Assembly (NCBI GenBank): GCA_045805805.1 | Contig: JBJMKO010000144.1 | Coordinates: 629 to 64,628 of the forward strand | Reading direction: 5' to 3' | Origin: Solirubrobacterales bacterium | GTDB taxonomy: Bacteria; Actinomycetota; Thermoleophilia; Solirubrobacterales; 70-9 | Length of the DNA: 64,000 nucleotides | Shown here: positions 399-61,328 of the stretch, one piece after another | How the letters are laid out: every line of letters starts with the position of its first letter | Numbering within the stretch: the first letter of the stretch is position 1 | The notes under the pieces: model-generated | The model's database searches: none | Seen by the model: only the letters and a program-made list of their open reading frames with translations | Told to the model about the DNA's origin: nothing | Program-made: the position numbers and the translations under genes

Positions 399-1725
399 CG
401 AGCAGCTCTCCGAGGGTCTCGGCGACCGCCTCCAGCCCCGCGGAGCGGGAGCCCTTGACGAGGACCGTGTCGCCGGGCTCGAGCTGCGCCGCCAGCAGCT
501 CTGCTGCCTCCTCGGGCGTGCCGACCAGCTCGTCCGGTCCGTAATCGCGGGCCGGCTCGCCGACCCCGATCAGCAGTCCGACCTTGGCAGCCCGGGCCCG
601 GTCCCCAATCTCGCGGTGATAGCCGGCGGCGTCGGGGCCGAGCTCCGCCATCTCGCCCAGGACAGCGATCCGCCGCCCCTCGCCGATCGAGGCAAGGTGA
701 CTCAGCGCGGCGCGCATCGAGACTGGGTTGGCGTTGTAGCAGTCGTTCACCAAGACGATCCCGTCGCCCATCTCGAGGCGCTCGCCCCGAAAGCGTGAGA
801 ACCCTATGTTCGCAACGCGGTCGGCCATCTCGGCGAGGGGCGCCTCGAGGGCCACCCCGACGGCCACCGCCGCCAGGGCGTTCTCGAGATTGTGCGCCTC
901 GGCGAAGGGAAAGTCGAAGGGCTGGCGGCCGCTGGGAGTATCGATCAGGGCATGGGTGACGCCGTCGTCGACGCGGCTTTCGATCGCCTGCACGTCGCCG
1001 CCGGGACCGAAGCGGAGCAGGCTCGGCGCTTCCCCCAAGTGCGGCTCCAGCTCCCCGGCTCCGACTGGAACGATGGCGGTGCCGGCGCTAGGCAGCGCGC
1101 TCAACACCTCGGCCTTGGCGGCCGCGATCGCCTCGACCGATCCCAGCAGCTCGACGTGCACAGGGCCGACGTTGGTGATCACGGCAAGCTCGGGCTCGGC
1201 AATCGAGGCCAGCTCGGCGATCTGTCCGGGGCCGCGCATCGCCATCTCGAGCACGAGGGTCCTGGTGCCCTCGGGGGCCTCGAGAATAGTGAGTGGGAGG
1301 CCGATCTCCGTGTTCAGGTTCTCGCGGTTGGCGTGCACGCTGCCCGGCAGCAGCGCCCGGGAGATGTCCTTCACGGAGGTCTTGCCGACCGAGCCGGTGA
1401 TGCCCACGACACGAGCCCCAAGCGCGCGGCGCCTGGCGCGAGCCAGTGCCTGCAGCGCGACCAGCGGATCGGCCACGGAGAAGACCCAGGCGCCCTCGAC
1501 CCCGGCTGTGCACTCCGGGCGCACGACCACGCCCCAGGCGCCGGCCTCCACCGCCGCCGGCGCGAACTCGCAGCCGTCGGCGCGCTCGCCCCGGAGGCCG
1601 AAGAAGAGATCCCCGGGGCCCGTCTCGCCAGAGTCGATCGTCGCCCGCCGCGCCGTCCCCGCCGCGCCCTCGGCCACGATCTCGGCGCCGAGGGCAGCGG
1701 CGATATCCGCCACGCTCATCTTCAT
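391..1725 (-). CDS. murF: UDP-N-acetylmuramoyl-tripeptide--D-alanyl-D-alanine ligase
   Basis: 444-aa ORF with Mur ligase P-loop GITGSVGKTS and NDCYNANP. Lies between murE and mraY, with overlapping stop/start codons on both sides. Confidence 0.92.
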   Translation of the reverse strand: MKMSVADIAAALGAEIVAEGAAGTARRATIDSGETGPGDLFFGLRGERADGCEFAPAAVEAGAWGVVVRPECTAGVEGAWVFSVADPLVALQALARARRRALGARVVGITGSVGKTSVKDISRALLPGSVHANRENLNTEIGLPLTILEAPEGTRTLVLEMAMRGPGQIAELASIAEPELAVITNVGPVHVELLGSVEAIAAAKAEVLSALPSAGTAIVPVGAGELEPHLGEAPSLLRFGPGGDVQAIESRVDDGVTHALIDTPSGRQPFDFPFAEAHNLENALAAVAVGVALEAPLAEMADRVANIGFSRFRGERLEMGDGIVLVNDCYNANPVSMRAALSHLASIGEGRRIAVLGEMAELGPDAAGYHREIGDRARAAKVGLLIGVGEPARDYGPDELVGTPEEAAELLAAQLEPGDTVLVKGSRSAGLEAVAETLGELLDG

Positions 1726-3311
1726 CCGGCACCGACCAGCTTCCGCAGCTCTTCGCGCGCCACCTCGCGATCGTCGAAGGGAACCTTGCGGCCGCCCTCG
1801 AGCTCCTGGCCCTGCTCGTGTCCCTTGCCGGCGATTACGACCATGTCTCCGGCCGCCGCCTCTCGCAGCGCGCGAGCAATCGCGGCCCGGCGATCCTGCT
1901 CGACCTCGAACGAGGCGCCGTTCTCGATCCCACCGACGACTTCCTCGATGATCGTCCCGGGCTCTTCTGAGCGCGGGTTGTCGGAGGTGACGATCGCCAG
2001 ATCGGAACCGGCAGCGCCGGCCCGGCCCATCTTCGGCCGCTTGTCCCGATCGCGATCGCCACCGGCGCCGAAGACCGCGATCACCCGCCCCTCGGTCAAC
2101 CGTCGCGCCGCCCGCAAGACGTTCTCCAGCGAGTCCGGCGTGTGCGCGTAGTCGACCAGCACGGCGAAGCCCTGCCCCTCGTCGACCGGCTCGAACCGCC
2201 CCGGCACCCGCTCGGCCCGCCCCAGCCCCTCGGCGGCAACCTCCGGTGCGATACCCATCTCAACCGTCGCCGCAAACGCCCCCAGCGCATTGGCCACATT
2301 GAAGTCCCCGGGCAACCCGGTCCGCACCGGCACCCCCCCGCTGACGGGACGAAATGTGGAGCCACAGTCCACATTTCGTCCCGTCAGCGGGCTGTTCACG
2401 GTGAATGTGGCGCTCGCGGCGTCGAAGGTGACGTTGCTCGCGACGAAATCGGCCTCGGCGGCCTCGGCCGAGAAGGTCGTGCAATCGAATTCCTCGGCCA
2501 GGCGACGGCCGTAGGAGTCGTCGACGTTGACGATCGACGCCTTCGGGCCCATCTCGAAGAGCAGTCGCTTCGAACGGAAGTACTCCTCCATGTCCCCGTG
2601 GAAGTCGAGGTGGTCCTGGGTCAGGTTGGTGAAGAGCGCCGCCTCGAAGTGGATCGAGTCGCAGCGGTGCAGGGCCAGCGCATGCGAGGAAACCTCGATC
2701 GCGCAGGCCCGGTCACCCGCTTGCAGCATTCGCCTGAACGTCGCCTGCAGGTCGATCGCCTCCGGCGTCGTCCGCTCGACCTCCTCCTCGGCCCCACCGA
2801 CCACCTGCCGCACCGTCCCCATCAGCCCACACTGAATACCGGCCGCCTCCAGCACCTCCCGAATCAAGAACGCAGTCGTCGTCTTCCCATTGGTCCCAGT
2901 AACCCCCACGACCCGAAGCTCCGAAGTCGGATCCCCCCAAAACCGAGCCGCCAAAGGAGCCATCGCCACCCGCGCATCGGGCACGATCACCTGCGTCACA
3001 TCCAGATCCAACTCCCGCTCGACCACAAGCCCCACCGCTCCGGCCTCCACCGCCGCCCCAGCAAAGTCATGCCCATCGCTCTTCTCACCAGGCACGCAAA
3101 AGAACAGCGTCCCGGACCCAACCTTCCGGCTGTCATAAGCAAGAGACCCCACCTCAACGGCGGGATCCCCGACAACCCGGCCCTCAACAGCTCCGGCGAC
3201 AAGCGCACCCAATCTCACGCCGCGAAGTCTAAGAAGGTCGCCGGGTGCCCTCCCCAAAACACTCAAGCGCGGCTCTGCCGCGCGTTTTGGGGAGGGCACC
3301 CGGCGGCCCAA
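1722..3311 (-). CDS. murE: UDP-N-acetylmuramoyl-L-alanyl-D-glutamate--2,6-diaminopimelate ligase
   Basis: 529-aa ORF with P-loop GVTGTNGKTTT and the DAP-type DNPR motif (TSDNPRSEEP). The start is uncertain: TTG at 3311 lies 4 nt after the ftsI stop, and GTG at 3218 is the alternative, because a long hairpin occupies 3236-3308. Confidence 0.9.
   Translation of the reverse strand: MGRRVPSPKRAAEPRLSVLGRAPGDLLRLRGVRLGALVAGAVEGRVVGDPAVEVGSLAYDSRKVGSGTLFFCVPGEKSDGHDFAGAAVEAGAVGLVVERELDLDVTQVIVPDARVAMAPLAARFWGDPTSELRVVGVTGTNGKTTTAFLIREVLEAAGIQCGLMGTVRQVVGGAEEEVERTTPEAIDLQATFRRMLQAGDRACAIEVSSHALALHRCDSIHFEAALFTNLTQDHLDFHGDMEEYFRSKRLLFEMGPKASIVNVDDSYGRRLAEEFDCTTFSAEAAEADFVASNVTFDAASATFTVNSPLTGRNVDCGSTFRPVSGGVPVRTGLPGDFNVANALGAFAATVEMGIAPEVAAEGLGRAERVPGRFEPVDEGQGFAVLVDYAHTPDSLENVLRAARRLTEGRVIAVFGAGGDRDRDKRPKMGRAGAAGSDLAIVTSDNPRSEEPGTIIEEVVGGIENGASFEVEQDRRAAIARALREAAAGDMVVIAGKGHEQGQELEGGRKVPFDDREVAREELRKLVGAG
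2337..2391. repeat. perfect 24-bp inverted repeat with 7-nt loop inside the murE coding sequence
   Basis: CCCGCTGACGGGACGAAATGTGGA (2337-2360), loop GCCACAG, then TCCACATTTCGTCCCGTCAGCGGG (2368-2391). Reverse complement checked base by base. It is translated as PLTGRNVDCGSTFRPVSG. Confidence 0.9.
3236..3308. repeat. compound hairpin at the ftsI-murE junction
   Basis: Perfect 22-bp arms CGCCGGGTGCCCTCCCCAAAAC (3239-3260) and GTTTTGGGGAGGGCACCCGGCG (3284-3305), extendable to 3236/3308 with one mismatch. The loop contains a second perfect 7-bp stem, GCGCGGC-TCT-GCCGCGC (3267-3283). Confidence 0.9.
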
Positions 3312-6978: not shown

Positions 6979-7011
6979 CGCGGGTTCCTTTCTGGCCTGG
7001 GAAGTGAGTTA

Positions 7012-7054
7012 GGACCGGAGTGATGAGGTGGGAGGAACCTCATCACCCCGGTCC
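7012..7054 (-). promoter_or_regulatory. 18-bp stem / 7-nt loop hairpin in the mraZ leader
   Basis: GGACCGGAGTGATGAGGT (7012-7029) pairs with ACCTCATCACCCCGGTCC (7037-7054) at 17/18. It lies between the MraZ-box-like repeats and the mraZ start. The loop reads TCCTCCC on the transcribed strand. Confidence 0.4.
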
Positions 7055-7070
7055 TGGGCTTCAACTCGCG

Positions 7071-25111: not shown

Positions 25112-25139
25112 TTAAGCCACCCTTTCCTCGAGGGTTGTC

Positions 25140-25312
25140 ATGGCTGGCCGGGGACAGGTCTCCTGGCTCCCGGGGTTTGTCGGCCGCACCTTCCCGGGGA
25201 ATCGGTGTCCTCCCCAGTGGCCGGCGCCATAGCGCCTGCGGCTTCCTTGACCCGGTCACAGTGGCGGGACCGCGCCGGCTTCTCACCGGACTTCCCTTGA
25301 CCACCGACCGTA
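25140..25312 (-). promoter_or_regulatory. cobalamin (B12) riboswitch
   Basis: The reverse strand reads GGTCGGTGGTCAAGGGAAGTCCGGTGAGAAGCCGGCGCGGTCCCGCCACTGTGACC...GGCCACTGGGGAGG...CCCCGGGAAGGTGCGG...GAGCCAGGAGACCTGTCCCCGGCC. The conserved GGGAA/GGTG/CCCGCCACTG elements and the B12 box (AGCCAGGAGACCTG) are all present. It lies 30-200 nt upstream of the 25111 start. Confidence 0.85.
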
Positions 25313-25521
25313 TTTACGCGGGCGAGTCTATCCCGCTCCGGCGCCCCCGTGCGTCCGGCCCCCGAGACTCCCCAGCCAAGCTATCGGTCGGCGGGAATCG
25401 GGGGGCCAGGATGGCCGCCCGGATTCGGCCGACCGCTGAACGTTCGTCCAGCATTCTTTGCCTCCCCCCGGGCCGGGTCTAGGCTCGCCGCGGCAAGCCG
25501 GTCCTAGCAGAGGGGGAGAAG

Positions 25522-35392: not shown

Positions 35393-35465
35393 TACCGCTA
35401 CGGGGATTCGAACCCCGGTTTCCGGACTGAGAATCCGGCGTCCTAGTCCCCTAGACGATAGCGGC
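35393..35465 (-). tRNA. tRNA-Glu (anticodon CUC)
   Basis: Reverse complement GCCGCTATCGTCTAGGGGACTAGGACGCCGGATTCTCAGTCCGGAAACCGGGGTTCGAATCCCCGTAGCGGTA folds as a cloverleaf with anticodon loop TTCTCAG. The 1-72 pair is G-U. Confidence 0.88.
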
Positions 35466-35602
35466 GAGGAAGCGTCAGTTTAGCGATATGGGCGGTGGGC
35501 CTCTCACTGGGAGCTTCTGATTGTCGGACTGGATTTATCGAACGCTCGTTCGCTTCGCTGCCCGATCTCCCAACTCGCCAACTCGGTAGATTGCAGGGGC
35601 TG

Positions 35603-35686
35603 GCGGCTGTGGCGAAATTGGTATACGCGCGAGCTTCAGGTGCTCGTGGGGGAAACCCCGTGGAGGTTCGAGTCCTCTCAGCCGCA
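35603..35686 (+). tRNA. tRNA-Leu (anticodon CAG)
   Basis: GCGGCTGTGGCGAAATTGGTATACGCGCGAGCTTCAGGTGCTCGTGGGGGAAACCCCGTGGAGGTTCGAGTCCTCTCAGCCGCA. Long variable arm, anticodon loop TTCAGGT. Confidence 0.9.
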
Positions 35687-43828: not shown

Positions 43829-43902
43829 TCGGGGAGACAGGATTTGAACCTGCGACCGCTCGGCCCCCAGCCGAGTGCGCTACCAGACTGCGCCACTCCC
43901 CG
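43829..43902 (-). tRNA. tRNA-Pro (anticodon GGG)
   Basis: Reverse complement CGGGGAGTGGCGCAGTCTGGTAGCGCACTCGGCTGGGGGCCGAGCGGTCGCAGGTTCAAATCCTGTCTCCCCGA. All four arms pair, anticodon loop CTGGGGG. Confidence 0.92.
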
Positions 43903-43931
43903 TGGCTGCCTTACATTCTTACGAATCGCAT

Positions 43932-44002
43932 GCGGCGGTAGCTCAACGGTAGAGCCTCAGCCTTCCAAGCTGATGACGCGAGTTCGATTCTCGTCCGCCG
44001 CT
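43932..44002 (+). tRNA. tRNA-Gly (anticodon UCC)
   Basis: GCGGCGGTAGCTCAACGGTAGAGCCTCAGCCTTCCAAGCTGATGACGCGAGTTCGATTCTCGTCCGCCGCT, anticodon loop CTTCCAA. Confidence 0.92.
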
Positions 44003-46834: not shown

Positions 46835-46908
46835 CGGGGCAGCCAGGACTCGAACCTGGAATCGCCGGTTTTGGAGACCGGTGCCTTAGCCAGTTGGGCC
46901 ACTGCCCC
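46835..46908 (-). tRNA. tRNA-Trp (anticodon CCA)
   Basis: Reverse complement GGGGCAGTGGCCCAACTGGCTAAGGCACCGGTCTCCAAAACCGGCGATTCCAGGTTCGAGTCCTGGCTGCCCCG, anticodon loop CTCCAAA. Confidence 0.9.
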
Positions 46909-46973
46909 GAGGAAGCCATGCTAACCGGGCCGTCGCGCAGATCGCGCTCCGGCGAGCCGGCTGGAAATCATGA

Positions 46974-47057
46974 TGCGGGCGGAGGGACTTGAACCCCCAC
47001 GGGCCGAAGCCCACCAGGACCTAAACCTGGCGCGTATGCCAATTCCGCCACGCCCGC
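46974..47057 (-). tRNA. tRNA-Leu (anticodon UAG)
   Basis: Reverse complement GCGGGCGTGGCGGAATTGGCATACGCGCCAGGTTTAGGTCCTGGTGGGCTTCGGCCCGTGGGGGTTCAAGTCCCTCCGCCCGCA. Long variable arm. Confidence 0.9.
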
Positions 47058-47125
47058 GTGGCTGCTCTTCGAACTTAACGCGCGACCAATGCCGCGTCGT
47101 CGCTCTTAGATTCTATGATCGTCGC

Positions 47126-47656
47126 GTGGCGGTTGGAGAGGTCAGGCCCGGGTATGAGCTTTGGCGGCCGAATCGGGAGAAGGCCGAGTCGATCACGACC
47201 AAGTTCGTGCTCGTCTTCCTGCTCGCGGCGACGGCGGCAATCGCGGGCTTGGTGACGATCACCGGCTTCTCCCTGATGACCGGCGGCAGCGGCATGGGAA
47301 TCATCTGCCTGATCTTCGCCCTGCTGTACGCCTTCTTTGCCTTCCTCGTCGCCCGCTGGAGCCGCGGCATTCTGCCCGTCGCCGCCGCCCTCTCGATGAT
47401 CCTGGCGATTCTCTGCGCGGTCGGCGCCGACAGCTGGTTCGCCCGCGACAAGGCCGGCTTCGAAGACGCGCTGATCCCGGTGACGCTGATCGGCCTGCTG
47501 GTCGTGATCCTGGCGATCCTGCAGCTGATCCTGATCGCGTTCGCCCTCTACGGCTTCAACCAGAACTGGCACGTGGAGGAGGAGCGCCCGATCGGCTCCG
47601 GTGAGGACTACGGCGCCGGCGCCTCGCCCGACGACGGCGCCCCGCTGCCCGCCTGA
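47126..47656 (+). CDS. hypothetical integral membrane protein
   Basis: The GTG start at 47126 was chosen because the longer ORF overlaps the tRNA-Leu antisense strand. Four TM helices with an acidic C-terminal tail. Confidence 0.55.
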   Translation: MAVGEVRPGYELWRPNREKAESITTKFVLVFLLAATAAIAGLVTITGFSLMTGGSGMGIICLIFALLYAFFAFLVARWSRGILPVAAALSMILAILCAVGADSWFARDKAGFEDALIPVTLIGLLVVILAILQLILIAFALYGFNQNWHVEEERPIGSGEDYGAGASPDDGAPLPA

Positions 47657-47685
47657 TCGCTGCGCCGCTCTCGTCGCTTCGCCGA

Positions 47686-47768
47686 TGCCGGAGGCGGGAG
47701 TCGAACCCGCACGCCCTTGCGAGCAATTGATTTTGAATCAATCGTGTCTACCGTTCCACCACTCCGGC
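47686..47768 (-). tRNA. tRNA-Leu (anticodon CAA)
   Basis: Reverse complement GCCGGAGTGGTGGAACGGTAGACACGATTGATTCAAAATCAATTGCTCGCAAGGGCGTGCGGGTTCGACTCCCGCCTCCGGCA. Confidence 0.9.
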
Positions 47769-53300: not shown

Positions 53301-54215
53301 TTAGGCACTCCGCCTCGCTTCGATGCGGCGCACCACGGCAAGCAGGGTCGAGCGCACGTATTGGCGTTCATAGCGCAGCTGCCAGTGGGTGAAGCGAAGC
53401 GGGATGAACCCGGCGGCAAGATGCGCCTGATCGCGAATGTGATCGCGCATCTGCTGTGCGGGTGTGCGGTGGTAACGCAGCCCGTCGGTCTCGACCACCA
53501 GCCGAAGATCGGACCAAAGGAAGTCGACCTTGAAGCCGTTCAGGTGCTGCTGCGTCATTGGCAAGGGCAAGCCCGCCCTTCGAACCTGCGGCAGGAACCA
53601 CTGCTCGAGTTCCGAGTCCGTCAAACGGAACGTCCGCCGATCGAGCAGCTCGCGCAGTCGCGCCACGCCTCGTTGACCGCGGTAGGCGTCGAGAGCAATC
53701 CGCAGGGCCTCCGGGTCGATCAGATCGAGTCGATCTGCCTCATTGACTGCACGCTCAAGCTCGCCGAGCCCCAGCGAGCAGGCGATGTCGATCAGCGTGC
53801 GCACCACGCAGGTCACCGGGATCCCGGCGCAGGTCGTCAAATCCGCATCCGGAAGTGTCCGCCGGTGACTTGTTATTCCTGCCTGCCGATGTCGATGTGC
53901 CGCCGGTGTCGAAATCTCCAGGTGCCCTCGTTGCTCACCGCCAATCCCCCAGAGCGCTGCTGCGCTGCGATGGCTCAACGCTGCTCCCGGACCACCGGCG
54001 AGAACCGCGGTCATCCACCGACCCCGCCGGGTGAGTTCCGGACGACCAACCGCGTAGACCCCGCGCCCGACTCGATGCAAGCGGCCCCTGGACACACGAT
54101 GCTGAATGCCCTGCGTACTCAACCCGGCATCCAAAAGCTGCCGCCGCGAAACCACCCCCTGCTGCTCCCGCGCCAAACGCCAAATCGTTGCCGAGTGGTC
54201 AGTTGATGACCCCAT
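53301..54215 (-). CDS. DUF559-domain protein (AbiEi-like N-terminus + Vsr-like endonuclease fold)
   Basis: 304 aa with N-terminal GVVSRRQLLDAGLS...RVGRGVYAV and C-terminal VDFLWSDLRLVVETDGLRYH. Confidence 0.75.
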   Translation of the reverse strand: MGSSTDHSATIWRLAREQQGVVSRRQLLDAGLSTQGIQHRVSRGRLHRVGRGVYAVGRPELTRRGRWMTAVLAGGPGAALSHRSAAALWGIGGEQRGHLEISTPAAHRHRQAGITSHRRTLPDADLTTCAGIPVTCVVRTLIDIACSLGLGELERAVNEADRLDLIDPEALRIALDAYRGQRGVARLRELLDRRTFRLTDSELEQWFLPQVRRAGLPLPMTQQHLNGFKVDFLWSDLRLVVETDGLRYHRTPAQQMRDHIRDQAHLAAGFIPLRFTHWQLRYERQYVRSTLLAVVRRIEARRSA

Positions 54216-54260
54216 AGGGTCACTAAGTGACCAGTCGGCGGAATTCTCCCCCCCTGGGGG

Positions 54261-57287: not shown

Positions 57288-58102
57288 GCGAGCTGCGGGT
57301 TTTCGCGGTCGACGGCCTGCCGGAGATCGAGACCGGGACGAACCTCGGCGAGCTGATCGCGTCGCGGGCGGAGCTTCTCAACGGGGACGTCGTGGTGGTC
57401 TCTCAGAAGGTCGTCTCCAAGGCAGAGGGACGGGTGCGGCGACTCTCCACGGTAGTCCCCGGCGCCGAGGCTCACCGTCTCGCCGCCGAGCTTGGCAAGG
57501 AGCCGGCCATGGTCGAGCTGACCCTGGAAGAGAGCCGCGAGGTGCTGCGAGCCGAGCGTGGCGTCCTGATCACCGAGACCTACCACGGCTTCGTCTGCGC
57601 CAACGCCGGCATCGACAGCTCCAACCTCCCTGAGGCAGACACCGTCTGCCTGCTCCCCGAGGACCCCGACGCCTCGGCCCGCAATCTAAGAGTCGAAATC
57701 GCCTCCGCAGTGACGAAGGAGCATGGGGTGGGACTCGCCGGACACCCAGCGCGAAGCGCGTCCGCCGAGTCCCACCCCATGCTCCCCCCAACCCTCGCGG
57801 TAGTGATCGGCGACAGCTTCGGCCGCGCTTGGCGCCTCGGCCAAACCGAGGCAGCAATCGGCTGCGCCGGCCTGACCCCGCTGGACGACTGGCGCGGCCG
57901 AAGCGACTCGCACGGGCGCAAGCTGGAAGCCACGATGATCGCCATCGCCGACGAGGCCGCCGCAGCCGCCGACCTCGTCCGCGGCAAGGACAGCCGCGTC
58001 CCGGTCGCGATCGTCCGCGGCTTGGACCGCTTTATCACTGTCGACGACGGCCCCGGCGCAATAGCGCTACGCAGACCTCGAGACGAAGACCTCTTCCGCT
58101 GA
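57284..58102 (+). CDS. cofE: coenzyme F420-0:L-glutamate ligase (single-domain CofE type)
   Basis: 272 aa with VVVVSQKVVSKAEGR, CANAGIDSSN and IGDSFGRAWRLG. There is no C-terminal nitroreductase-like domain. Confidence 0.88.
   Translation: MSELRVFAVDGLPEIETGTNLGELIASRAELLNGDVVVVSQKVVSKAEGRVRRLSTVVPGAEAHRLAAELGKEPAMVELTLEESREVLRAERGVLITETYHGFVCANAGIDSSNLPEADTVCLLPEDPDASARNLRVEIASAVTKEHGVGLAGHPARSASAESHPMLPPTLAVVIGDSFGRAWRLGQTEAAIGCAGLTPLDDWRGRSDSHGRKLEATMIAIADEAAAAADLVRGKDSRVPVAIVRGLDRFITVDDGPGAIALRRPRDEDLFR
57718..57785. repeat. perfect 20-bp inverted repeat (28-nt spacer) inside the cofE coding sequence
   Basis: GGAGCATGGGGTGGGACTCG (57718-57737) pairs with CGAGTCCCACCCCATGCTCC (57766-57785). 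The spacer adds a further CGGAC/GTCCG stem. Translated as KEHGVGLAGHPARSASAESHPMLP. Confidence 0.9.
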
Positions 58103-59004: not shown

Positions 59005-61328
59005 TAGGTTTCGACGATCTCGTACAGAGTCGTGCGCTGAGCGGGCTCACGGCCGCCGGCGCGGGCAGCGTCGATCAGCTGCTCCGGCTCGAGCCGCACC
59101 CCGTGCTGGGAGCCCGCCATGCGGGAGATGTTCTCCTCCATCAGGGTGCCGCCGAGGTCGTTGACACCCCAGCGCAGGGCCTCGGTGGCCGCGTCGAGGC
59201 CCATCTTCACCCAGCTCGCCTGCAGGTTGGGAACCGTCCTGCCCAGCGCCAGGCGGAAGGCGGCGGTGTGCTTGAGGTTCTCCCCGGCGGAGATCTCCTC
59301 GATCCCGTGGGTGCGGCCGAGCATCGTGTTGAAGGGGATGAAGCTGAGCGGGACGAACTCGGTGATGCCGCCGGTGCGCTCCTGCAGGGCGCGGACGACG
59401 CGCATATGGCGGGCCAGCTCGCGCGGCTCCTCGATATGCCCGAACATCACGGTCGAGGTCGAGCGCAGGCCGGCGCGGTGGGAGGCCTCGATGATCTCGA
59501 CCCAGCGATCGACCGGCAGCTTGTTGGGTGAGATCCGCTGCCGCACCCCGTCGTCGAGCACCTCCGCCGCGGTCCCGGGGGTCGAGCCGAGCCCGCACTC
59601 AATCAGGTACTCGAAGACCTCGTCCGGCCCTTTGCCGGAACGCTCGCACATATAATCGACCTCCATCGGCGAGTAGGCGTGCAGATGCAGCTGCGGCGCG
59701 ACCTCCTTCGCCAGCCGCAACCACTTGCCGTACTCCTCCAGGGTCAGATCGGGATGGATCCCCCCCTGCATGCAGATCTCCGTGGCGCCGAACTCGACCG
59801 CCTCGCGAATCCGCGCGGCGAACTCCTCCTCCGAGACCTCATAAGCATCCGGTGACCGCCGCCCCTGCCCGAACCCGCAGAAAGCACAGCCGACGACGCA
59901 GATGTTGGTGAAGTTGATGTTGCGGTTGACGACGAAGGTGACCCGGTCGCCAGCGAGCTCCGCCCGAAGCTCATCCGCAGCAACGCGCATCTCCTCGATC
60001 ACCTCGGGCCGCGTCTCGGCGAAGAGAGCAGTCAGCTCGTCCTCGCTGAGCTCCTCGCCAGCCCGGCCCTTCTCAATCGCTTCCGGAGCAAGCCCGCCAT
60101 CCAGGGTCTCTTCACTCCTGCGCCCCGACCCTCTACGCGGGATGAAGCTCCAGTACTTCAGCTTGATCACGTCGAGCACGCCCTGCTCCATCCACTCCGA
60201 GTCCATGTACTGCGGGTAGACGCAGAGCCGCTCCGTAAGCGCATAGCCCTTCGGCGCAAGCTCCTTCCGCACCTCATGGGGGCTGGGAAACGCGTGCTCG
60301 GGAGAGATGTGATCGCCGTTTGCAGACAGCCCACCCAGGTCAGTAGCCCCGGCCTCGACAAGCTCCCCCCAGGCGTCGGAAAGATTCGGCGGCACCTGCA
60401 CCCCGACATCGGGCATCAACCGCTTGCACTCGGCGATCAACCGCTTGATGCCGTCGACGGAAACCTCGCTGGCCCAGGCGGGGTAGGCCAACGGGACGCC
60501 CTCCCCCGGAGCAACAACCTGGGAGGCTCCGGGGGAGGGCGTCCCGTTGGCCTTCGCAGGTACGGCAAGAGGCGCCGGGGACCCATCCGGCGGGAACTCG
60601 CGGAGCGACAGCGGAGCCCCGCCGGATGGGTCCCCGGCGCCTCCCCACCGCTCCAGCGACGCCTCATCCGCGATATCCGCCACTTCCGCGCCGTAGTGCT
60701 TCGGATGCGGAATGAAGTTCTGCAGGATCACCTCTTGGATGTGCCCGTAGCGCCCGTGCAGCTCGGCGAGCGCTTCGAGGGAGGCGACCTGCTCGTCCTC
60801 GGTCTCACCGATGCCGACCAGGATGCCGCTGGTGAAAGGGATCTTCAGCTCGCCCGCGGCCTCGATCGTTGCCAGCCGTTGCGCCGGGTGCTTGGACGGG
60901 GAGCCGGCGTGGACGGTGTCCATCAGCCGCTCCGAAACCGACTCCAGCATCAGGCCCTGAGATGCGGTGACCTCGCGCAATCGAGCCAGGTCGGTCCGGT
61001 CGAGCACCCCGATGTTCGTGTGCGGAAGCATGCCCCGCTCGAGCGCTCGTTCGCAGCTCCAGACGACATAGGAGGTGAAGTCGCCGTGACCCCATTCGGC
61101 CAGCTTGGCCGCCACCACGGGGTTGACCTCGGGCCGCTCGCCGGTGAGGACCAGGAGCTCCTTGGCGTTGCGTCTCACCGCTTCGTCGAGGAGATTTTCG
61201 ACCTCCTCAGGGGCGCGGATATGCGCCTGATGAGTGGCGAACGCGCAGTACTTGCAGTAGCACTGGCAGGTGCGCGAAAGGGAGAGCGTGTAGTTCCGCG
61301 AGAAGGTGACTCGGCGCACGTGGGGCAC
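59001..61328 (-). CDS. fbiC: bifunctional FO synthase (CofG + CofH domains)
   Basis: 775 aa with two radical-SAM cysteine motifs (CQCYCKYCAF and CVVGCAFCGF). CofG-like N-half and CofH-like C-half are joined by a Pro/Gly-rich linker. Confidence 0.92.
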   Translation of the reverse strand: MPHVRRVTFSRNYTLSLSRTCQCYCKYCAFATHQAHIRAPEEVENLLDEAVRRNAKELLVLTGERPEVNPVVAAKLAEWGHGDFTSYVVWSCERALERGMLPHTNIGVLDRTDLARLREVTASQGLMLESVSERLMDTVHAGSPSKHPAQRLATIEAAGELKIPFTSGILVGIGETEDEQVASLEALAELHGRYGHIQEVILQNFIPHPKHYGAEVADIADEASLERWGGAGDPSGGAPLSLREFPPDGSPAPLAVPAKANGTPSPGASQVVAPGEGVPLAYPAWASEVSVDGIKRLIAECKRLMPDVGVQVPPNLSDAWGELVEAGATDLGGLSANGDHISPEHAFPSPHEVRKELAPKGYALTERLCVYPQYMDSEWMEQGVLDVIKLKYWSFIPRRGSGRRSEETLDGGLAPEAIEKGRAGEELSEDELTALFAETRPEVIEEMRVAADELRAELAGDRVTFVVNRNINFTNICVVGCAFCGFGQGRRSPDAYEVSEEEFAARIREAVEFGATEICMQGGIHPDLTLEEYGKWLRLAKEVAPQLHLHAYSPMEVDYMCERSGKGPDEVFEYLIECGLGSTPGTAAEVLDDGVRQRISPNKLPVDRWVEIIEASHRAGLRSTSTVMFGHIEEPRELARHMRVVRALQERTGGITEFVPLSFIPFNTMLGRTHGIEEISAGENLKHTAAFRLALGRTVPNLQASWVKMGLDAATEALRWGVNDLGGTLMEENISRMAGSQHGVRLEPEQLIDAARAGGREPAQRTTLYEIVETY
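60569..60643. repeat. perfect 26-bp inverted repeat (23-nt loop) in the fbiC inter-domain linker
   Basis: GAGGCGCCGGGGACCCATCCGGCGGG (60569-60594) pairs with CCCGCCGGATGGGTCCCCGGCGCCTC (60618-60643). The total is 75 nt, or 25 codons, translated as GGAGDPSGGAPLSLREFPPDGSPAP. Confidence 0.9.

Follow-up and report, generated by a model that had tools for sequence, protein, structure and literature searches.

A translated hairpin in murE of a Solirubrobacterales bacterium as a probable member of a dispersed palindromic element family

A perfect 24-bp hairpin that is translated as part of murE was analysed in a 64,000-nucleotide (nt) stretch of a Solirubrobacterales bacterium (contig JBJMKO010000144.1), the whole of which is referred to here as the window. 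The hairpin is most probably one copy of a dispersed, non-autonomous family of palindromic elements of the Solirubrobacterales (Thermoleophilia, Actinomycetota) that resembles REPINs, made up of repetitive extragenic palindromic (REP) sequences, and the Rickettsia palindromic elements (RPE). The family is previously undescribed, while the kind of phenomenon is known from REPINs and RPEs; no description of such elements was found in the literature on palindromes, REPs or miniature transposable elements with inverted repeats (MITEs) of Solirubrobacterales, Thermoleophilia or Conexibacter, or on DUF559.

A perfect hairpin within the murE coding sequence

The arms of the hairpin at 2337-2391, located at 2337-2360 (CCCGCTGACGGGACGAAATGTGGA) and 2368-2391, are exact reverse complements that enclose the loop GCCACAG (as shown, 2361-2367). 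The hairpin lies in the minus-strand open reading frame (ORF) 1722..3311, where it is translated as NSPLTGRNVDCGSTFRPVSGGVPVRTGLPGDFNVANAL (hairpin peptide PLTGRNVDCGSTFRPVSG). A model reading the letters alone had reported a perfect palindrome translated inside murE (the original prediction), and its arms, loop and intact frame were all confirmed. The features of the locus are as follows.

1722-3218, minus strand: murE, UDP-MurNAc-L-Ala-D-Glu:meso-DAP ligase, the host gene of 498 amino acids, with the insert at about residues 275-292, flanked by two predicted strands (270-275 and 296-300).
2337-2360, minus strand: 3' arm of the hairpin in the sense orientation (TCCACATTTCGTCCCGTCAGCGGG), from arm pairing; its last 7 nt (2337-2343, sense CAGCGGG) are also present at empty sites.
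2361-2367, minus strand: apical loop of 7 nt (sense CTGTGGC), from pairing and fold.
2368-2391, minus strand: 5' arm of the hairpin in the sense orientation (CCCGCTGACGGGACGAAATGTGGA), which carries the family's conserved end CYGACGGGAC.
2344-2397, minus strand: block of 54 nt (18 codons) without counterpart in empty murE alleles, from the comparison of filled and empty alleles.

Imperfect pairing around the hairpin reached 36 nt (2325-2403, 86%), and a 101-nt sense RNA had a predicted folding energy of -61.9 kcal/mol (z = -5.9), a stability that was equalled by none of 200 shuffles. Eight perfect hairpins with stems of at least 12 bp were present in the window compared to 0-1 in shuffled sequence, five of them with stems of 20-28 bp. 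When up to three mismatches were allowed, the only matches to the 24-mer in the window were the sequence itself and its partner arm, and 100 shuffles gave an expectation of 0. The copy search proposed in the original prediction thus gave no second copy within the window, and copies of the family were found in related genomes and metagenomes. The process that places hairpins, which had been suggested there, was borne out by these copies, while a dispersed repeat family had not been anticipated.

The hairpin occupies a block inserted into murE

A shorter spacer before the conserved LPG motif in other MurE proteins, and hence an inserted block, had been put forward in the original prediction. The solved MurE structures 8g6p and 4bub showed a gap of 14-15 residues exactly at the hairpin, just before LPGxFNvxN, and empty murE alleles differed from filled ones by exactly 54 nt, in agreement with this claim. 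The closest MurE sequences to that of the window, whose organism is an uncultured member of the Solirubrobacterales, were 88% identical. An alignment of 120 MurE homologues delimited the insert, which was present at the same codon position in about 100 sequences with the peptide pattern P-TG[RL][NK]...[FLN][RS]P[VI]G, absent from about 15 and reduced to remnants in a few, and the segment was therefore not of one length in all orthologues.

Filled alleles were found in the window and in the compared loci L203, L001 and L079, where the DNA reads TTCACCGT, the 54-nt block and then CGGCGGGGGG, while the empty alleles of L201 (MurE 87% identical), L012, L016, L020 and L047 read TTCACCGTCGGC followed directly by GGGGGG. 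Read on the sense strand, the block opens with a 6-nt tail (GAACAG), continues through the 5' arm and the loop and takes in 17 nt of the 3' arm; since CCGT is repeated at both junctions the position of the border is ambiguous by 4 nt. The murE gene of L202 carries an internal-deletion remnant of the element. Deep outgroups were all empty with a canonical xTPEGx turn and without GTCGGC, whereas the short-empty alleles all carried GTCGGCG, which would therefore mark either a target that the element prefers or the trace of an excision.

Of the 199 MurE sequences placed in a neighbour-joining tree, 118 had the full insert, nine a partial one and 72 none, a distribution that required about 22 parsimony changes and indicates that the site is dynamic. 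The AlphaFold2 model of MurE (mean pLDDT, predicted local distance difference test, of 83.8) placed residues 278-293 in a coil with a pLDDT below 50, which in the central domain has strands 270-275 and 296-300 on its two sides, and the mapping onto a structure that had been suggested accordingly gave the anticipated position, a low-confidence coil between two strands of this domain. Insertion in the ancestor of a subclade, where a beta-hairpin of the central domain turns, is the best explanation for these data. The gene stays open and conserved around 18 stop-free codons, which suggests that the insert is tolerated by the enzyme. Chimeric reads can yield perfect palindromes, and an assembly artefact such as a fold-back chimera had been named as an outcome that would undo the prediction. 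The murE frame is intact, however, and an element is present at the identical codon position in over 100 orthologues that were assembled independently, by several pipelines and in part on multi-megabase contigs of metagenome-assembled genomes, so that the probability of an artefact is negligible.

A dispersed family with conserved ends and a variable paired interior

The murE-type element is about 49 nt long and has the form GCCGACGGG[C/A]C...G[G/T]CCCGTCGGC. At least 120 metagenomic stretches were matched by the pattern CCGACGGGMC-N27-GKCCCGTCGG, and with the genome loci added the number of distinct copies from soil metagenomes and related genomes came to at least 155. A second site was the mraZ-rsmH spacer of eight relatives, where the copies, identified by a pattern from the conserved ends, always measured 45 nt from CGACGGG to CCCGTCG.

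L008, L011, L017, L019, L025, L027, L028 and L037, at about 524-812: element copies in the mraZ-rsmH spacer.

Two of these eight genomes carried a murE copy as well, and the mraZ-rsmH spacer of the window itself was without a murE-type element. The ORF listing of L011 had the rsmH reading frame extended through the element copy.

The basal stem of 13 bp, GCCGACGGG[C/A]C[G/T]A and its complement, was nearly invariant and 94% paired. Above it are three positions that are either paired as A-T or mismatched as A·A or T·T, the mismatched copies ("type A") making up about one third, followed by an apical stem of 6 bp, in which GC, CG, AT and TA pairs were all common, and a loop of about 5 nt. Watson-Crick pairing in the apical stem was 74.6% compared to 34% with the 3' columns shuffled (maximum 38% in 500 shuffles).

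The context of 128 copies was assigned from the phase of third-position GC content (GC3) in the flanks and not from gene annotation. On this basis 32 copies were in frame and free of stops within coding regions, 16 were between convergent genes and the remainder were at gene boundaries or in non-coding DNA, or roughly 25% in frame and 75% at gene ends or in non-coding DNA. All three frames of the palindrome were used by the in-frame copies (PTGR..RPVG, PADGP..SARR and RRRA..GPSA). Hosts other than murE included bioD-like, glpK, lipB, purQ, pheT-like and ABC-exporter genes; Pfam domain matches ran across the inserts in the BioD-like AAA_26 protein, glycerol kinase, LipB and PurQ, and the insert of the ABC exporter was located just before the ABC_tran domain. 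The same host genes recurred with differing element sequences at an identical site. The asymmetric type A copies were co-oriented with transcription in a ratio of 19:5 (p = 0.0066). At L189 (6055-6165) the loop of one element held a second element, which had CATCT on either side of it.

These shared features bear on a local origin of the hairpin, in which a template-switch (fold-back) replication error would have turned existing murE sequence into an inverted repeat. Empty sites already contain GTCGGCGGG, the 3' end of the hairpin, and one arm could thus have served as template for the other, but only 7-9 nt pre-exist at the target and not a 24-nt arm. Interior, ends and the exact 45-nt spacing are common to copies at many loci, and only 3 of 53 positions distinguish the murE copy of L203 from the copies that flank a nuclease gene at L208. 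This explanation is largely refuted by the dispersed copies and is very improbable.

Complementarity is kept while the sequence changes

At the murE site of 16 species, 81% of the stem cells were paired compared to 67.5% in shuffles (0 of 500 as high), and 15 of the 24 pairs had changed on both sides. The covariation score was 0.336 compared to 0.124 in shuffles (0 of 500) and 0.04-0.08 for slid structures. The original prediction had doubted that the palindrome is maintained by protein-level selection alone, and this was supported, as the peptide changes freely with pairing kept across the 16 species. Between the murE elements of the window and L203 there were two compensated pair differences and no uncompensated stem changes.

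An adaptive MurE loop of 18 residues, the DNA palindromy being incidental, would fit the retention of the insert in 118 of the 199 sampled MurE sequences and the conservation of the ends PxTG...RPVG. These ends are, however, the translation of the conserved DNA ends, and the middle of the peptide is free while base pairs are kept. In addition, other proteins read the same DNA in other frames, disorder is predicted for the insert and many close relatives do without it, making such a loop highly improbable.

Upkeep of the palindrome was not only a matter of slow compensatory evolution: in L210 (MurE 88% identical) this site, with its left flank unchanged, is occupied by an element of a quite different subfamily (GATACGTCAAGG). 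The interiors of copies were 74% identical on the same contig compared to 49% on different contigs, and the greater likeness within contigs is taken as a sign that copies evolve in concert in each genome, through re-insertion or copy-to-copy conversion. Stem mismatches, read on the sense strand, comprised 36 G·U and 45 A·C (p = 0.37). RNA-level selection on the stem was rejected by this test, and the lack of a G·U excess suggests that pairing is maintained at the level of DNA rather than mRNA.

A functional RNA structure under selection in the mRNA of the division and cell wall (dcw) operon, acting as a processing, stability or ribosome-pausing signal, was considered in this context. It would account for the very stable fold, the covarying pairing kept at the same site in many species, the asymmetric variants that follow the direction of transcription and the other hairpins at conserved positions in the same operon. 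Set against this are the spread of at least 155 copies over unrelated genes, three reading frames and the spaces between convergent genes, the absence of a G·U excess and some 20 losses of the murE copy, one of them in a relative with 87% identity. No Rfam family matched the element. The mraW RNA motif (RF01746) is a hairpin-like actinobacterial element upstream of mraW/rsmH, where relatives hold their second family copy, but as an identity for the element it was rejected, the mraZ-rsmH copies having no match at E <= 1. Its model gave no hit at the murE hairpin, and the sole weak hit (29.7 bits compared to a gathering score of 50) was to a hairpin in fbiC. An RNA function is on this evidence improbable.

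Under the preferred interpretation of a dispersed element, the element with its 6-nt tail would have been inserted as a 54-nt block in murE of the subclade ancestor, and the perfect 24/24 arms would be a property of the element and not of MurE. DNA-level processes would keep the copies palindromic and homogenised in each genome. Transposition or conversion is the mechanism suggested by these patterns, with the subfamily current in a genome homogenising the copies through re-insertion or by copy-to-copy conversion, and templated repair within the hairpin possibly helps to keep the arms matched. The murE site also loses the element, either precisely or with remnants left behind.

A nuclease gene is flanked by element copies

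A gene of about 300 codons in the element-selected loci had element copies on both sides. Its product combines an AbiEi_4 winged helix with a DUF559/MTES_1575 domain, a Vsr-like PD-(D/E)XK nuclease (Pfam), and the motif D...E-x-D...H was kept in the translations. Near-identical copies about 958 nt apart flanked the gene in all genomes examined, namely at L204-L207, which had been chosen by protein similarity alone, and at L208, L209, L086, L144, L189 and L195, those of L208 being the copies that nearly match the murE element of L203. Twenty-two of 120 nuclease homologues ended in an element-encoded tail, and one such tail (TGRNVDSESTFRPVG), that of P0226 which is carried by the nuclease loci L208 and L209, was identical to the murE insert peptide of P0010. 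An origin of the P0226 nuclease and the P0010 MurE from the same genome was rejected, since they come from different samples; what is shown is therefore the same subfamily and not the same genome.

The nuclease gene was located just downstream of groEL at every locus with a checkable upstream flank. A conserved GCGCACCACCCGCGCG motif was present upstream of the first flanking copy in those nuclease loci whose flank was read, and at L189 (7085-7170), on the other side of the nuclease gene, half an element abuts a full one. The window has a nuclease paralogue at another locus (53301-54215, 41% identical), with an imperfect and different palindrome at 54191-54240 over its 5' end and start, of which no other copies were found in the compared loci.

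The nuclease with AbiEi_4 winged helix-turn-helix (wHTH) and DUF559/MTES_1575 domains is a tentative candidate for the enzyme responsible for the element. It may be, although this is doubtful at present, that the hairpins are a REPIN-like class of mobile DNA with a domesticated wHTH and PD-(D/E)XK nuclease as cognate enzyme in place of an HUH/Y1 enzyme, the single nuclease gene beside groEL being kept between two copies of its own substrate. The candidate would cut hairpin or cruciform DNA, and the elements would spread and become alike as breaks are repaired with other copies as template; this route would account for arms that match perfectly, for subfamilies that are specific to a genome and for their exchange at murE. 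If true, a very large uncharacterised "Vsr-like / AbiEi" family would gain a function and a non-HUH nuclease could drive REP-type elements.

Relation to known palindromic elements

REPINs and REPs, together with their RAYTs (REP-associated tyrosine transposases), are short dispersed palindromes with conserved ends and a variable interior that keeps the hairpin through compensatory changes (PMC3116915, PMC3733652). Similarly, the murE-type element is a repeated and dispersed palindrome, with at least 155 copies at many loci, and its conserved ends enclose a variable, compensated spacer (apical pairing of 75% compared to 34% when shuffled, all four pair types). Genome-specific subfamilies are found in both, and excisions that leave a few terminal bases, about six having been described for REPINs (Bertels & Rainey, PMC3116915), may be shared as well. 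REPINs are located mostly between unidirectional or convergent genes with some copies intragenic, and of the murE-type copies about 75% were assigned by GC3 phase to gene ends or non-coding DNA. In both a single-copy gene is flanked by two copies. The REPtron, a single-copy RAYT flanked by its REPs, is thus resembled by the groEL-side nuclease between two copies, while the enzyme class differs.

The murE-type element departs from REPINs in its Actinomycetota host, in the flanked gene, which encodes wHTH and PD-(D/E)XK (DUF559) domains and not an HUH/Y1 RAYT, in a much higher in-frame intragenic share (about 25%) and in being a single 49-nt hairpin and not a REP doublet. No RAYT (IS200-like Y1/HUH) was seen, in analyses that did not include a systematic RAYT search. 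REPs of the CGTC type have been listed in five phyla, none of them Actinomycetota (Di Nocera et al. 2013, PMC3733652), RPE-4 and RPE-6 have been classed among them, and documented intragenic REPs encode 20-30 residues (both PMC3733652). In the murE-type element CGTC (GACG on the other arm) falls within the basal stem CCCGTCGG and is not terminal, conservation extending 2-3 nt beyond it.

MITEs (PMC10969869) are likewise small, non-autonomous and flanked by inverted repeats, with nested insertion (as at L189) and polymorphism of filled and empty sites. The murE-type element differs from these in that the whole element is one hairpin without a consistent target-site duplication. No parent insertion sequence with matching terminal inverted repeats was found in the loci covered, which were of up to 10 kb.

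The Rickettsia palindromic elements were reportedly described by Ogata et al. in 2000 as palindromic repeats that lie in frame in conserved protein-coding genes. RPE-1 is about 100-150 nt long. Palindromic repeats lying in frame within essential genes had been regarded as mostly confined to Rickettsia and a few REP-rich Proteobacteria or Verrucomicrobia. The murE-type element shares with RPEs the in-frame position in conserved genes, including essential ones, the addition of a short peptide and the presence of further copies in non-coding DNA, and in murE the insertion that characterises RPEs, in frame at a tolerated position of a conserved ORF, is represented by 18 codons between strands with a pLDDT below 50. 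The present hosts belong to another phylum and are free-living high-GC soil bacteria, and the element is shorter (49-55 nt); the likeness to RPEs is one of behaviour alone.

Several observations weigh against the assignment to a mobile family. No second family copy was present in the 64-kb window, by the 24-mer at up to three mismatches or by a relaxed end pattern, and the copy number per genome is a rough extrapolation only, 789 kb of element-selected loci having contained 17 extra copies. No transposase was identified in the element loci. Direct repeats amounted to one 4-nt CCGT (murE) and one possible CATCT (the nested copy), and because these are two cases only, with different lengths, there is no target-site duplication rule. 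The right end of the element, GTCGGCG, is already present at empty sites, whether as a favoured target or as what an excision left behind. The co-orientation of type A copies leaves some room for strand-specific or RNA-level constraint, although it may also reflect coding constraints or a replication-strand bias. Finally, all of the nuclease loci are orthologous, being downstream of groEL, and therefore represent one conserved ancestral arrangement and not many independent associations.

The same phenomenon as in RPEs would thus extend to abundant, mostly uncultured soil Actinomycetota, where it affects murE, murF (in relatives), cofE, fbiC, glpK, lipB, purQ, bioD-like and other core genes. 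The inserts provide a natural map of insertion-tolerant loops, and they warn that clade-specific "signature indels" in such proteins can be mobile DNA. Extension of ORFs by gene callers is also explained by such elements.

Other hairpins and features of the window

The original prediction had grouped the murE hairpin with those at 3236-3308, 57718-57785 and 60569-60643 as products of one process acting inside genes. This was upheld insofar as in-frame family copies occur in other genes and the cofE and fbiC hairpins are insertions, but the four are not one sequence family. The hairpin at 3236-3308 was misplaced in this group, as it is intergenic in the ftsI-murE spacer. It is one of a second family of hairpins, in which inner stem and loop are conserved, ..GCCC(C)TCCCCAAAAC-ACTCAAGCGCGGC..GCCGCGC-GTTTTGGGGAGGGC.., and the outer stem varies. 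Hairpins of this type were found at the same position in L001, L005, L006, L016, L201, L202 and L203, and elsewhere in L001 (7838-7915), L006 (7815-7854 and 8433-8510) and L079 (7850-7928).

The hairpin at 57718-57785 is inside cofE, encoding F420-0:gamma-glutamyl ligase, where residues 149-170 are without counterpart in the CofE structures 7uld and 2phn and thus represent an in-frame insertion of about 22 amino acids. Two adjacent perfect hairpins with stems of 28 bp (60485-60553) and 26 bp (60569-60643) are located in fbiC at about residues 228-281, directly after the point where the match to the CofG-domain model breaks off, and are insertions relative to homologues. The first of these (I2), which gave the sub-threshold RF01746 hit and was the sole match in the window to the relaxed end pattern apart from the murE copy, was rejected as a family member since it shares only the ends CAACGGGACG..CGTCCCGTTG with the murE element. 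For all three hairpins in cofE and fbiC no other copies were found in about 1.7 Mb of compared loci, and none is a member of the murE family.

A third in-frame palindrome, of about 45 nt (for example CGGCGTTCGTCCTTGG..CCAAGGACGAACGCCG, read as RRSSLDRNSGPKDERR), was present in murF of relatives between GAWGVVV and AWVF, a position at which murF of the window has no hairpin.

L001, 5708-5752: murF palindrome.
L007, 5663-5707: murF palindrome.
L014, 5662-5708: murF palindrome.
L015, 5654-5698: murF palindrome.
L017, 5708-5752: murF palindrome.
L025, 5648-5692: murF palindrome.
L047, 5652-5694: murF palindrome.

Just upstream of mraZ, a 19-bp hairpin (7011-7055) was 95-98% identical in 44 related loci whose MurE proteins were 60-88% identical, and no match to it was found in Rfam. 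This hairpin is far more conserved than its surroundings and may therefore be a cis-regulatory element of the dcw operon. The Rfam scan of the window also identified a cobalamin riboswitch at 25136-25320 (74 bits) and seven tRNA genes in the regions 35393-35686, 43829-44002 and 46835-47768.

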